In this document: positions 19,863 to 57,174 of the stretch, piece by piece
Position numbering within the stretch: position 1 is the stretch's first letter
How the letters are laid out: every line of letters starts with the position of its first letter
Assembly: GCF_024700885.2 (NCBI RefSeq)
Contig: NZ_CP117016.1
Source: Escherichia coli
GTDB taxonomy: Bacteria > Pseudomonadota > Gammaproteobacteria > Enterobacterales > Enterobacteriaceae
Reading direction: 5' to 3' (one strand)
Length of the DNA: 64,000 nt
Translations under genes and position numbers: made by a program
Notes under the pieces: generated by a model
What the model was told of the DNA's origin: nothing
The model's database searches: none
The model's input: the letters and a program-made list of their open reading frames with translations, nothing else

Positions 19863-20057
19863 ATGAAAACATTACCTGTATTACCCGGGCAGGCGGCCAG
19901 TTCTCGCCCGTCTCCTGTTGAAATCTGGCAGATACTGCTGTCCCGACTGCTGGACCAGCACTATGGCCTCACACTGAATGACACACCTTTTGCCGATGAA
20001 CGTGTGATTGAGCAGCATATTGAGGCAGGCATTTCACTGTGTGATGCGGTGAACTGA
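19863..20057 (+). pseudogene. cbtA: cbtA (yeeV) toxin gene, 5' half (codons 1-64) truncated by prophage insertion
   Basis: [64 protein letters not shown], then TGA supplied by the first 3 nt of the prophage. The reading continues at 57175 (FLVEKYALVRTD...). Confidence 0.9.
20049..20054. repeat. target-site duplication, left copy (GTGAAC)
   Basis: The identical hexamer occurs at 57175-57180. Both are cbtA codons Val-Asn. Confidence 0.8.
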
Positions 20058-20099
20058 TGCGCCGCGCGATAAATGCACTCTATCTTGTGCGATAAATGG
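20055..20099 (+). repeat. prophage terminal repeat, late-gene end (putative transposase binding sites)
   Basis: TGATGCGCCGCGCGATAAATGCACTCTATCTTGTGCGATAAATGG. Position-for-position it matches the reverse complement of the other end: TGAT at 1-4, G(C/A)GATAAATG at 12-21, GTG(C/A)GATA at 33-40. Confidence 0.75.
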
Positions 20100-20132
20100 C
20101 ATCCACGCGGCGTTTCATTATTTGAAAAAGAA

Positions 20133-20705
20133 TTACATTTCAGGTTGCGTTATGACAGTCCCAACAGGGTGATAGCGGTAGATCGTTGACAGTCCAATAT
20201 CATAGATAATTGCCAGCCGCTTTCTGTCATACCCTTTCTGGAGCAATCTTGCGATCTGCTCATGCTGCTCCTTCGTCAGTTTCGGGCGACGTCCTCCAAC
20301 TCTTCCTTGTGCTCGCGCAGCAGCCAGTCCAGCCAGCGTGCGCTCAACTATCAGTTCACGCTCCATTTCTGCCAGTGCACCCATCATATGAAAAAAGAAC
20401 CTTCCCATCGGAGTGCTGGTATCGATTGAATCCGTCAGACTGCGAAAATTGACACCTTTTGCGCGTAGCTCTTCTGTGAGAGCAATGAGGTGTTTCATTC
20501 TTCTACCCAACCGATCCAGCTTCCAGACCACCAATGTATCCCCTCTTTTAAGGCACTTTAAAGCGCGTTTCAGGCCTGGTCGTTCCGACTTGGTTCCGCT
20601 CATTTTGTCCTCAAAAATCTGTTCACATCCTGCGCACATTAATGCATTGCGTTGCAAATCTGTGTTTTGGTCATTTGTTGACACACGTATGTAGCCAATC
20701 AGCAT
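20133..20705 (-). CDS. Gin/Pin/Cin/Hin-family serine DNA invertase
   Basis: MLIGYIRVSTNDQNTDLQRNALMCAGCEQIFEDKMSGTKSERPGLKRALKCLKRGDTLVVWKLDRLGR... is near-identical in pattern to Mu Gin. Start taken at ATG 20705. Confidence 0.92.
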   Translation of the reverse strand: MLIGYIRVSTNDQNTDLQRNALMCAGCEQIFEDKMSGTKSERPGLKRALKCLKRGDTLVVWKLDRLGRRMKHLIALTEELRAKGVNFRSLTDSIDTSTPMGRFFFHMMGALAEMERELIVERTLAGLAAARAQGRVGGRRPKLTKEQHEQIARLLQKGYDRKRLAIIYDIGLSTIYRYHPVGTVITQPEM

Positions 20706-20759
20706 TAAAAATACTCCCTTTTGAGTGGTTAAAGTACTGAGATAATGTGGGGAGGATTT

Positions 20760-20785
20760 GAGAGATAAACGTTGGTTTGGGGGAA
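20760..20785 (+). other. invertase crossover site A (gix/hix-like, 26 bp)
   Basis: GAGAGATAAACG-TT-GGTTTGGGGGAA. The right half-site is shared with sites B and C. It is in inverted orientation relative to site C. Confidence 0.7.
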
Positions 20786-21205
20786 GGCTCGGCGCTGCCC
20801 GTTGGTGTACCTGTTCCGTGGCCCACTGCCACACCGCCAGCAGGCTGGTTAAAGTGCGACGGGCGCGCCTTTACAAAAGAACAATATCCTGTTCTGGCCA
20901 GAGTCTACCCGACCCTCCGTCTTCCCGATTTGCGCGGTGAGTTTATCCGTGGATGGGACGACGGGCGAAAAGTGGATACAGGGCGCGATCTGCTTTCACG
21001 GCAGGATGGTACAAGTTTTTCTCATTACGCAGGTAATTTTGACATTGGGTCTGGTCATTCAATCAATAACTATGACCAAATCCTTGACAACCAACCTGGA
21101 TTCTCCCGTTTTTCATTTGCAGGTCCTTCGCGAGGCGATGGGGTTAATTATGTGACCATTCGTCCCCGTAACATTGCGTTTAATTACATCGTAAGGGCGG
21201 CATAG
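20777..21205 (+). other. silent alternative tail-fibre C-terminal cassette A (no start codon or promoter of its own)
   Basis: In frame from the crossover site: LGEGSALPVGVPVPWPTATPPAGWLKCDGRAFTKEQYPVLARVYPTLRLPDLRGEFIRGWDDGRKVDTGR (tail-collar-type motif), then a unique end ...RPRNIAFNYIVRAA*. The frame is closed upstream by TGA at 20759-61. The first ~200 nt are nearly identical to the inverted segment 22600-22815. Confidence 0.8.
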
Positions 21206-21224
21206 AAACGTTGGTTTGGGGGAA
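21199..21224 (+). other. invertase crossover site B (gix/hix-like, 26 bp)
   Basis: GGCATAGAAACG-TT-GGTTTGGGGGAA. Direct repeat of site A, inverted relative to site C. Confidence 0.7.
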
Positions 21225-55097: not shown

Positions 55098-55777
55098 CAG
55101 ACCAGAATAAACACATTGAGAAACTGAAAAAGTTGCTGGCGCTGGCCGCATCCGGCAACCCGCACGAGGCCGCTCTGGCACTGTGCCGAGCCCGTAAACT
55201 GATGGATGTTCACGGCATCACACATTCCGACATTGCTATGAGTGATATTGATGAAACCATCAGTCACTACTGGCCGACAGGCAGTCTCCGTCCACCGCGC
55301 TACATGCTGGGCCTGATGAACATCATCCGCGAGGTATTTGGTGTTAACTCCATCATTCACCCCGGCACGCATCCGTCTGTGGGGTTCTACGGCAACCGGG
55401 AACGTGCGGCACTGGCTGCATACACCTGGGAAGTGCTGGCCCGTCAGCTGAAAAAGGCGCGTCAGCAGTATATCAGTGCACAGAACAAAAGAATAAAAAC
55501 CGCCACCCGCACCAGCCGTGGAGACCAGTTTGCCGAAGGCTGGGTGCTGGCCGTTATCAGTGAAATACAGTCCTTTGCCCTGACCGATGATGAGCGTGAA
55601 CTGATGCAGCAGTGGCTGGAACATAAATACCCGCAGACGCAAACCACCAGGGCGCGTAAACCGGGAAGAAGCCGCAATGGCGACGCCTCGCGCTATGCGG
55701 GGTTTCGTGAAGGGCAGAACGTCAGACTGCACCGCCCGGTCAGTGGGCAGGAACAACAGAAACTGGAGGCCAGATGA
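55094..55777 (+). CDS. DUF2786-domain protein
   Basis: MTDQNKHIEKLKKLLALAASGNPHEAALALCRARKLMDVHGITHSDI... ATGA-coupled to the preceding gene. Confidence 0.65.
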   Translation: MTDQNKHIEKLKKLLALAASGNPHEAALALCRARKLMDVHGITHSDIAMSDIDETISHYWPTGSLRPPRYMLGLMNIIREVFGVNSIIHPGTHPSVGFYGNRERAALAAYTWEVLARQLKKARQQYISAQNKRIKTATRTSRGDQFAEGWVLAVISEIQSFALTDDERELMQQWLEHKYPQTQTTRARKPGRSRNGDASRYAGFREGQNVRLHRPVSGQEQQKLEAR

Positions 55778-56004
55778 TTACGCTATCAGGTAAAAGCCGG
55801 AAATTAAAAGCCTGCCGAATATCTGCCAGATACCTTTTTGCCCGCGCCTTTTTTAAGAACGTCAGGCCGGGGATCACAATTGGTGTTATTGCCGGACGCG
55901 AACAGGTTGAAAAATACATGTCAGGTGCATGGTGGAATAACGACCCTGTCATTGCTGCCCGTAATATTCATATCGAATGGGGAGGTATTCAGAATGACTA
56001 CTGA
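55774..56004 (+). CDS. hypothetical early protein
   Basis: 76 aa, ATGA-coupled. Confidence 0.4.
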   Translation: MITLSGKSRKLKACRISARYLFARAFFKNVRPGITIGVIAGREQVEKYMSGAWWNNDPVIAARNIHIEWGGIQNDY

Positions 56005-56200
56005 AACCATTGTCTGTTTTCTTTTCTGGTATATGTACGCAGGATCATGCAGCGCAAGACTTCATCGTTCCCTGGGCTATGGCAGGCACTACGACACCGC
56101 GCATTACATCCTGTACATGACCGCCGTCATGTTGTTCTGGCCAGTCACCCTGCCAGCTGCAACCGACATTGTTGCCGACAGACTGAAAAAAAGGAGATGA
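55994..56200 (+). CDS. small membrane protein (hypothetical)
   Basis: 68 aa from ATG 55994 (GGAGG upstream), with two hydrophobic helices. The longer ORF-track version (55838) is discounted. Confidence 0.45.
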   Translation: MTTETIVCFLFWYMYAGSCSARLHRSLGYGRHYDTAHYILYMTAVMLFWPVTLPAATDIVADRLKKRR

Positions 56201-56201
56201 T

Positions 56202-56651
56202 ATGCAGAAAAAACGCCTGATACAGCTTATCCATATTGCCCGTAATGAACTGGGTATGGATGAAGACACCTACCGCCAGATGTTACAGGGGCTGACCGGT
56301 AAAGCCTCAACCAAAGGAATGGATACCACACAACTAAACTGCGTGCTGGAATCCATGAAAAAGAAAGGCTTTCGCGTTAAACCAGCCAGAAAAGCCAGCT
56401 CCGGTTTACCGCTGGATAACCATCCGCAGTCCAGGAAAATTCGTGCGCTATGGCTTGAAATGGCTGCTGCCGGCATTGTTCGTGACCGTTCAGAAAATGC
56501 ATTAGCGAGGTGGATCAAGCGGGAAACGGGCATCAGCGCCCTGCGCTGGCTCAGTACTGAACAGGCAAGCAGTGTTATTGAGAAACTGAAGAAGTGGCAG
56601 CGCAGAGCTGCGGGAGTCAAACATGAGCGACCTGAATCAGTTTCGAAGTAA
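56202..56651 (+). CDS. gemA: GemA/Mu gp16-like regulatory protein (DUF1018)
   Basis: MQKKRLIQLIHIARNELGMDEDTYRQMLQGLTGKASTKGMDTTQLNCVLESMKKKGF... Confidence 0.7.
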   Translation: MQKKRLIQLIHIARNELGMDEDTYRQMLQGLTGKASTKGMDTTQLNCVLESMKKKGFRVKPARKASSGLPLDNHPQSRKIRALWLEMAAAGIVRDRSENALARWIKRETGISALRWLSTEQASSVIEKLKKWQRRAAGVKHERPESVSK

Positions 56652-57012
56652 GGGGCCGGAACTCCTGGTGGAACTGGCACAGCATACCTCTGAGACCGTT
56701 CGCGAGATTATTGATATTGAGCCCGAAGTTGCCGACCAGATTGGTCAGGCCGTCGCGAACCGAATGATGCAGGTCTGGGGCGGGCAAAACGTTTATTTCC
56801 CGATGGGCATGGTATGGAAGGTCAGTCAGCGCGACCGGGAAATCTTCAGGGAGTTTAACGGACGCAACCACCACGAACTGGCCCGCAAATTTGGTGTTTC
56901 GCTTCAGTGGGTCTACAGCGTGGTTAAGCGGGTAAGAAAAGAAGAACTGGATCGGATGCAGGGCAAGCTATTTGCTGATGAACCCGATGCAGATACGGAG
57001 AAAAAAGAGTAA
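56623..57012 (+). CDS. mor: Mor-family transcriptional activator
   Basis: ...GGQNVYFPMGMVWKVSQRDREIFREFNGRNHHELARKFGVSLQWVYSVVKRVRKEE... is the Mor/C HTH pattern. It is the last gene before the prophage end. Confidence 0.8.
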   Translation: MSDLNQFRSKGPELLVELAQHTSETVREIIDIEPEVADQIGQAVANRMMQVWGGQNVYFPMGMVWKVSQRDREIFREFNGRNHHELARKFGVSLQWVYSVVKRVRKEELDRMQGKLFADEPDADTEKKE

Positions 57013-57127
57013 TATCTGCAATCAGGCTGGCGCGAGTTCTGTTTTTTTTCGGGCCGGTCTGATTTTCACATACTGTAAGGTTATTGCATATTCCTCCTAG
57101 TCTCTTCCCATTTTGACCCAGTTCTTC

Positions 57128-57174
57128 CCATAAATATCTCACTTATTCCCTGTCATTTATCTCAAGTCTAATCA
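57128..57174 (-). repeat. prophage terminal repeat, early-gene end
   Basis: The reverse complement is TGATTAGACTTGAGATAAATGACAGGGAATAAGTGAGATATTTATGG. It aligns with the other end at TGAT (1-4), GAGATAAATG (12-21) and GTGAGATA (33-40). Confidence 0.75.

Follow-up and report, generated by a model that had tools for sequence, protein, structure and literature searches.

A BcepMu-type transposable prophage in the toxin gene cbtA of Escherichia coli

BcepMu, which was reportedly described by Summer et al. in 2004, and the BcepMu-like phages with a Tn552-type transposase, a group said to have been treated by Summer in 2004, by Lavigne in 2009 and by Toussaint and Van Gijsegem in 2018, are among the closest described systems for the element studied here, a prophage in a 64,000-nucleotide stretch of E. 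coli DNA (contig NZ_CP117016.1 of assembly GCF_024700885.2, hereafter called the window). The BcepMu organisation as presented by Lavigne et al. (2009) combines an unrelated transposase of the Tn552 type with CA termini and a P2-like tail (PMC2771037). According to the same paper, BcepMu is without a fibre inversion system and carries variable host DNA at both ends of its virion DNA (PMC2771037), and the points on TG...CA ends and the rve domain were repeated in the paper on phage KS10 (PMC2628397).

The prophage occupies positions 20055-57174 of the window; it is 37,120 bp long, begins TGATGCGCC and finishes TCTAATCA. We are confident, on the gene order, the ends and the distribution of copies described below, that it is a complete, temperate and transposable BcepMu-type myovirus which appears functional and has been mobile recently, and which lies as a prophage in the toxin gene cbtA. 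It should be underlined that the prophage type and the BcepMu layout are already known, that a 99%-identical phage has been deposited, and that the prophage is common in E. coli.

Gene order and the nearest described phages

Fifty-six open reading frames (ORFs) were defined from a six-frame list together with the RefSeq annotation of a near-identical copy in the E. coli genome MLI114, and the genomes of Mu, BcepMu and P2 were searched with each of them by tblastn. BcepMu (NC_005882) matched 35 of the 56 ORFs at 31-76% amino acid identity, and the matches run in strictly monotonic order from the fibre gene (BcepMu position 32898) down to Mor (368), with the two arms on opposite strands in both genomes. 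Mu matched ten ORFs at 27-76% identity, namely Gin (76%), Gam (61%), TerL (49%), F (47%), GemA (36%), Mor (30%), G (29%), the portal (27%), J and part of the fibre; the late block follows the order of Mu, whereas the early block (gam, gemA, mor) is flipped. P2 matched nine ORFs (25-51%), all of them in the tail, and the order of the tail operon (sheath to D, then V to H) is that of BcepMu, unlike P2. Identity multiplied by coverage at the nucleotide level (blastn) was 92.9% for Escherichia phage PhiKM, 62.8% for the Klebsiella phage record KP12_2, 19.7% for BcepMu and 2.1% for Mu. The original prediction had assigned the prophage to the BcepMu order rather than that of Mu, and the genome comparison which it proposed supports the BcepMu type, as judged by the 35 colinear BcepMu matches and by close colinearity with Mu not being found.

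The control region is internal, as had been predicted, with the repressor gene at 47961-48317 on the minus strand and a small DNA-binding gene at 48411-48599 on the plus strand. From this region the early arm runs rightward on the plus strand to Mor (56623-57012), which is indeed the last gene and stops 162 nt before the terminus. The late arm runs leftward on the minus strand from the holin gene (45436) to the invertase gene (20133-20705), which stops 78 nt from the left terminus. The predicted leftward course of the lysis, head and tail genes to the invertase was thus recovered, but the two arms are not uniform: four ORFs situated at 45567-47844, with the lysis genes on one side and the repressor on the other (three on the plus and one on the minus strand), and two unselected fibre cassettes on the plus strand fall outside the pattern.

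The same comparisons bear on the possibility that the element is a prophage of the Mu, D108 and SfMu type (Muvirus) that is merely rearranged in appearance. Ten ORFs match Mu, the ends are TG...CA and the length is about 37 kb, and the likeness comprises Gam, GemA, a Mor/C activator, the terminase, the portal, F and G, a Gin-type fibre inversion, a chaperone pair with its second ORF in the +1/-2 frame and, by inference, replication by transposition. However, tblastn (E<=0.01) found no homologue of MuA, MuB, c, Ner, kil, lys, T, I, L, M, com or mom in the element, the identity multiplied by coverage is only the 2.1% given above, the early block is inverted, the target-site duplication is 6 bp and not 5, and the tail is of the P2 type. 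Mu differs further in being unidirectional with a terminal repressor, and in having its own tail type, two activators (Mor and C) and mom/com; the MuA/MuB pair, the unidirectional order and the 5-bp duplication of Muvirus (Mu, D108, SfMu) are all absent here. Whole-genome colinearity with Muvirus was not found, and a Mu-type prophage is refuted by these results, with practically no probability left to it. It is also evident that the description of the heads and transposition genes as Mu-like has to be narrowed. It stands for TerL, portal, F and G, whereas the major capsid protein and the protease have no detectable similarity to Mu, and all genes of the head module are 44-67% identical to their BcepMu counterparts. 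For the transposition genes it holds by function only, as the transposase shows no BLASTP similarity to MuA (E 0.48) and the ATPase none to MuB (E 2.4).

A P2-family (Peduoviridae) prophage with an acquired transposon module was considered as well, since nine tail proteins match P2 and since X and E carry the P2-type Pfam domains Phage_tail_X and Phage_TAC_7, respectively. The predicted P2-like tail was in fact confirmed by sheath, tube, U, D, V, W, J, I and H, the nine proteins matched in P2. Outside the tail, however, tblastn gave no P2 counterpart (integrase, Cox, Ogr, A, B, Q, P, O, N, M, L), although no search for P2-type cos ends was made. The packaging genes are of the Mu/BcepMu type, the element has transposon ends and target duplications and is found at many sites, and the tail operon is in BcepMu's order, not P2's. 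A P2-family origin is refuted by the gene content, and we regard it as extremely improbable.

With BcepMu and phiE255 the prophage shares the two-arm layout, the internal control region, a Tn552-type transposase, an ExeA-like ATPase, a gp16-family regulator, GemA and Mor, and also the Mu-like terminase/portal/F/G set, the P2-like tail, a late-promoter-like motif and the frame geometry from E to E'. Its rve transposase of the Tn552-IS1604 type, the adjacent ExeA-like ATPase, the divergent arms and the TG...CA ends with a target duplication place it in the BcepMu-like group. It differs from BcepMu in having an unrelated repressor, so that the two are probably heteroimmune, and in carrying a Gin-like invertase with a three-cassette switch, a Mu-type Gam, a Dam methylase and further accessory ORFs. 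No homologues of the BcepMu acyltransferase gp53 or of gp03-gp07 were detectable in the element. The ICTV uses about 70% genome-wide nucleotide identity as the criterion for the genus Bcepmuvirus. With 19.7% identity multiplied by coverage, and no BcepMu match by megablast, the element lies well below this value, and by that criterion the E. coli lineage would constitute a sister genus to BcepMu. Placement in a genus apart from BcepMu would be a point of taxonomy, not a discovery. For annotation, the comparison implies that such prophages should not be described by analogy with Mu, given that they depart from Mu in transposase, ATPase and repressor as well as in the regulatory cascade and the size of the duplication.

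Escherichia phage PhiKM (PQ738613.1, listed by NCBI under Bcepmuvirus) is 99.0-99.6% identical over 85-100% of two query halves and has the same genes in the same order. Its record is partial: the invertase and the invertible region are missing from it, and the tape measure gene is interrupted by a sequencing gap. It contains a small ORF and E in longer forms than the window. The record breaks within the shared fibre repeat, and a segment of 343 bp (20235-20576, 'Fe2+ ABC transporter permease') that is absent from the window abuts its Mor-side end. A literature search found no paper on PhiKM, the matches being unrelated papers on phiKMV. Klebsiella 'phage KP12 clone KP12_2' (OM835952) and Escherichia phage Phi06_2974 B (KM389306) have the same layout and gene set, with about 84-88% nucleotide identity in the aligned parts; their immunity and accessory regions differ from those in the window, and KP12_2 has one silent fibre cassette annotated compared to two here. 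KP12_2 is filed under Vequintavirinae, which is a misfit with its BcepMu-type content, and neither the KP12_2 nor the PhiKM record is a clean virion genome. In E. coli of sequence type 131 (ST131) the same prophage is often labelled 'Burkho_phiE255/BcepMu' by PHASTER-type tools, and an ST131 preprint lists a Bcepmuvirus/phiE255-like prophage with an invertase and fibre rearrangements.

Ends, insertion site and mobility

The limits proposed for the prophage in the original prediction proved to be exact. The element is flanked by direct repeats of the hexamer GTGAAC, the left copy at 20049-20054 within cbtA and the right copy at 57175-57180, and when the prophage was excised in silico together with one GTGAAC copy, the remaining 600 nt formed a perfect empty site, 100% identical to the intact cbtA-yeeW region of K-12 MG1655 and many other strains. 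The cbtA gene, encoding the toxin of the CbtA/CbeA pair of a CP4-44-like island, is split by the prophage into halves near 19863-20054 and 57172-57363, and insertion at this position inactivates the toxin gene. The antitoxin gene cbeA stays intact beside it.

The prophage has TG...CA termini. Its left (tail-side) terminus (20055-20098, plus strand) consists of TG and two GCGATAAATG repeats at 20068-75 and 20091-98, which are putative transposase binding sites, and its right (Mor-side) terminus (57131-57174, minus strand) has the CA end and the repeats GAGATAAATG and GAGATATTTA. Both resemble the termini of BcepMu: the fibre-side terminus reads TGATGCGCCGCGCGATAAATG here and TGAAGCGCGGCGCGATATTTC in BcepMu, and the Mor-side terminus TGATTAGACTTGAGATAAATG here and TGAAGAGAGGTGAGATATTTC in BcepMu, while at each terminus of both genomes a second GCGATAAAT-like repeat is situated about 23 bp further inward. 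A 6-bp duplication is the footprint of transposases of the B3/Tn552 type, as opposed to 5 bp for Mu (PMC8705779).

Copies at other chromosomal sites were found with the same boundaries. In the genome EcPF7 a copy of equal length (37,120 bp) and with the same ends lies between otsB and araH, flanked by a 6-bp repeat of its own, CCATTT; the target-site duplication is thus 6 bp at both sites checked (cbtA and the EcPF7 site), and the insertion sites are varied. Ten further contexts obtained from a look-up of the Mor protein, taken together with MLI114 and EcPF7, gave 11 different right-hand junctions, every one of which breaks exactly after TCTAATCA. Outside the invertible region (34.3 kb), the window copy differs by two single-nucleotide polymorphisms (SNPs) from the MLI114 copy and by two from the EcPF7 copy. 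The presence of near-identical copies at unrelated sites in unrelated strains shows that the prophage has spread recently, and with copies only two SNPs apart at many chromosomal sites it is actively mutagenic by insertion in clinical lineages of E. coli.

The insertion in cbtA itself is rare. A direct search for the junction among 5,426 complete E. coli genomes returned one, MLI114 from Mali, which differs from the window by one fibre inversion and two SNPs and is identical to it in the compared flanks (2,300 nt on the left and 2,500 nt on the right). A cbtA site shared across ST131, suggested by records that seemed to reach position 58097, was rejected on this result. The prophage as such is more common: at least 80% of a query covering 44000-60000, made up largely of the prophage's right-hand 13 kb, was present in 380 of the 5,426 genomes (about 7%). 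Relatives of the transposase were found in 208 species-representative genomes. Those in Enterobacterales, among them Buttiauxella, Trabulsiella, Mixta, Pantoea, Erwinia, Pectobacterium, Dickeya and Brenneria, are 81-94% identical, those in Burkholderia, Chromobacterium and Iodobacter about 65-70%, and those in Pseudomonas about 54-61%.

Regulatory region and early operon

The repressor (47961-48317) is an XRE/HTH_3 protein of 118 amino acids with no similarity to BcepMu gp17 or Mu c. It has no S24 peptidase domain, so induction by the SOS response or by mitomycin C should not be assumed from its sequence. BcepMu is released spontaneously by cultures of B. cenocepacia J2315 (PMC2628397), its early gene expression is raised by H2O2 according to a published observation, and an E. 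coli Bcepmuvirus, 'Ben' (36,442 bp), was obtained by induction of a gut isolate (PMC12629997 supplement).

The divergent control region (48318-48410) contains on its plus strand an early promoter-like sequence, TTGATA-17-AATAAT, at 48335-48363. A perfect 18-bp palindrome, TGCTCATAATTATGAGCA, at 48341-58 exactly occupies the spacer of this promoter-like sequence, and related half-sites are found at 48311-25 and at 48113-30, the latter within the repressor gene. From their sequence and position, the palindrome and the related sites are likely operators. The three sites (48113-48130, 48311-48325 and 48341-48358) are of the type TGCTCAT-N4-(A/G)TGA(G/A)CA, and one SNP between the window and MLI114, at 48112 in the repressor gene, adjoins the internal site.

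The early operon (48411-57012, plus strand) encodes a gp16-family protein, an HTH protein, a DUF3102 protein, a small ORF, the transposase, the ExeA-like ATPase, Gam, small ORFs, GemA and Mor. Its first product (48411-48599), a DNA-binding protein of 62 amino acids, had been called Ner-like; this applies to its position only, as the protein belongs to NCBIfam family TIGR04111 (BcepMu gp16; 97 bits) and shows nothing against Mu Ner. The transposase (50224-51993) has Pfam rve as its only domain and is 68% identical to BcepMu gp09 over 581 amino acids. Directly 3' of it lies the gene for the ATPase (52004-53170; AAA_22), which is 59% identical to BcepMu gp08. These are followed by Gam (53470-54000), GemA (56202-56651) and Mor, and there are eight further small ORFs, one of them before Gam, the largest encoding a DUF7168 protein; the five of these that were scanned all fall in PHROG families.

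Mu Mor and Mu C match one and the same ORF in the prophage. With a single Mor/C-family gene, the cascade probably proceeds from early genes to Mor and on to the late genes, unlike Mu, in which it proceeds from early genes to Mor, then to C and finally to the late genes. The motif WTTAAWATC was observed seven times in the window compared to 1.36 expected, and four of the seven occurrences fall within intergenic gaps of the late genes, on the late strand, upstream of holin, protease, E and W. These TTTAAwATC elements (45487-45495, 38020-38028, 32102-32110 and 26012-26020, minus strand) are candidate Mor-dependent late promoters, and similar elements are present at the four positions in KP12 and BcepMu, despite an identity multiplied by coverage of about 20% to BcepMu.

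Taken as a sequence of events, the phage integrated by DDE transposition and probably replicates by it as well. The Tn552/rve-family transposase would bind the repeated GCGATAAAT-like sites at the TG...CA ends, helped by the ExeA-like AAA ATPase, and it cuts the target with a 6-bp stagger. The XRE-type repressor, transcribed leftward, would block the rightward early promoter through the spacer palindrome. Upon derepression the early operon would produce the transposition proteins, Gam, GemA and finally the single Mor/C activator, and Mor would then turn on the four leftward TTTAAwATC promoters, which would serve the lysis and packaging genes, the protease and capsid genes, the tail chaperone genes and the baseplate genes, respectively. 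The Mu-like terminase and the published BcepMu data argue for headful packaging with host DNA at the ends, and the Gin-like invertase switches the fibre tip among three cassettes.

Fibre switch, tail chaperones and completeness of the prophage

The invertase (20133-20705) is a serine DNA invertase of the Gin/Cin/Hin type with the Pfam domains Resolvase and HTH_7. The invertible region (20767-22820) contains three gix-like sites, at 20767-85 and 21206-24 on the plus strand and at 22802-20 on the minus strand, with the sequences AAACGTTGGTTTGGGGGAA (twice) and TTACCTTGGTTTAGGAGAA, within inverted repeats of 229 nt. Two silent fibre C-terminal cassettes, C3 (20777-21205) and C2 (21216-21677), are on the plus strand. 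The tail-fibre assembly gene (21684-22298) and the P2 H-like tail-fibre gene (22298-23965) are on the minus strand, and the latter carries the expressed cassette C1 and 4.5 tandem copies of a 168-bp (56-amino acid) repeat (22985-23737) recognised as Pfam Phage_fiber_2 repeats. The MLI114 copy corresponds to the window with 21211-22818 inverted and the EcPF7 copy to the window with 20772-22818 inverted; all three inversion states thus occur among the three genomes, with fibres of 555, 538 and 527 amino acids. An invertase, inverted gix-like sites, alternative C-termini and both orientations were all found, as in a fibre switch of the Gin/Cin/Hin type. The E. coli lineage accordingly has a three-way fibre switch with a single assembly gene that is co-oriented with the fibre gene in one state only, that of this window. 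With regard to host range, closely related strains can differ in this region through inversion alone. A PRNIAFNYIVRA-type stretch closes both C1 and C3, and judging from the DNA C2 seems to have a similar ending.

The head and packaging genes (34370-43075, minus strand) are, in the order of transcription, those for TerS, TerL, portal, F, G, protease/scaffold, major capsid, DUF2190 and gp36-, gp37- and gp38-like proteins. The genes for the contractile tail of the P2 type (23968-34380, minus strand) are arranged as sheath, tube, a small ORF, E/E', tape measure, U, X, D, V, W, J and I, an order identical to that of BcepMu gp39-gp51. Neither NCBIfam nor Pfam placed the E' ORF, the capsid protein or the protease in a family, and these were assigned by BcepMu homology and position.

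The tail chaperone gene E (32049-31777) and the overlapping E' ORF (31889-31632) together occupy 31632-32049 on the minus strand, with E' in the +1/-2 frame. The E' ORF shares 40% identity with BcepMu gp42 and has a weak similarity to P2 E'. Relative to E, the -1 frame is closed in the window, and the overlap of the two ORFs contains ACG GGG ATG; the +1 offset from E to E' is the same in KP12 (OM835952.1, about 10151-10661) and in BcepMu (24602-25061). This geometry leads us to suggest, tentatively, that the whole BcepMu-type lineage may make an E+E' fusion through a +1 or -2 ribosomal shift, the mode reported for Mu, instead of the -1 shift that P2 uses. Should such a fusion exist, the BcepMu gp42/gp43 annotation would be misplaced and the true pair would be gp41/gp42. 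The BcepMu record annotates gp42/gp43 as a frameshift pair; P2 shifts -1 at GGTTTTTTG, and Mu gp41 has the +1/-2 geometry at CGGGGGCGA.

All ORFs had been predicted to be intact, which is almost the case. The exceptions, relative to PhiKM, are both in the late region. A small accessory ORF of 93 codons between the tube gene and E (32147-32430, minus strand; a weak DUF7739 match and no BcepMu counterpart) has an extra G in a G-run that results in a frameshift, and the PGAP pipeline marks it as 'frameshifted' in MLI114 and EcPF7. E closes at TAG (31777-31779) where PhiKM has CAG, giving 90 instead of 111 amino acids. This frameshift and this stop codon count against a functional phage, and the same can be said of three further points: in two fibre states out of three (MLI114 and EcPF7) the sole fibre-assembly gene is directed away from the late transcript, the promoter, operator and Mor-site assignments are sequence patterns only, and this particular copy is known from its sequence alone. 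A remnant that is defective or domesticated, such as a tailocin-like or cryptic element no longer forming infective particles, could be argued from the PGAP pseudogene calls in the late region (E with an 'internal stop' and the 'frameshifted' small ORF), from the silent fibre cassettes that PGAP marks as partial genes and from this copy being known by its sequence alone. The PhiKM record, with its 343 bp absent from the window, and the KP12_2 record are moreover both partial, and neither proves virion production.

However, the prophage has a full gene set and is present with an identical length of 37,120 bp at two sites, and copies two SNPs apart in unrelated strains, with at least 11 junctions, call for recent movement of this very allele. 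Both late-region alleles are also found in the MLI114 and EcPF7 copies, at different chromosomal sites, and are thus compatible with spread. The stop in E is downstream of its overlap with E' and takes away only an Ala/Gly tail of poor conservation, the 90 amino acids that remain being close to the 91 of P2 E, and the 'partial' fibre genes are the normal silent cassettes of an inversion system. A remnant is for these reasons unlikely in our view, and a complete BcepMu-type phage is much to be preferred. What annotation pipelines report as 'pseudogenes', namely the silent fibre cassettes and the E/E' overlap, belongs to the normal make-up of such prophages.

The lysis cassette (43075-45436, minus strand) comprises a holin, an SLT-type endolysin, an Rz-like gene and two small genes for membrane or unknown proteins. 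Between it and the repressor are three accessory ORFs of unknown function (45567-46295, plus; 46271-46675, minus; 46674-46889, plus) and a gene for a Dam-type adenine methylase (46990-47844, plus), none of which has a BcepMu counterpart. The three accessory ORFs belong to PHROG families without known function, one of them with a weak P-loop match. Defence-system cargo at 45567-46889 was considered and rejected, as PADLOC gave no match for these ORFs or for several early ORFs and matched only the Dam gene, with methyltransferase models. All ten small ORFs that were scanned against PHROGs fell in existing families, nine of them of unknown function, while the ORF at 54571-54867 carries the annotation nucleoside triphosphate pyrophosphohydrolase. 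A scan of 19000-58500 against Rfam returned no match. The gap between G and the protease gene (37965-38178, 214 bp) lies at 48.6% of the genome, where Mu carries its strong gyrase site, and alignment of the gap with that site gave no convincing similarity. The gap contains a long hairpin, GGCTGTA..CCTTTATAAAGG..TACAGCC, followed by a T-run, which is terminator-like and conserved in BcepMu.

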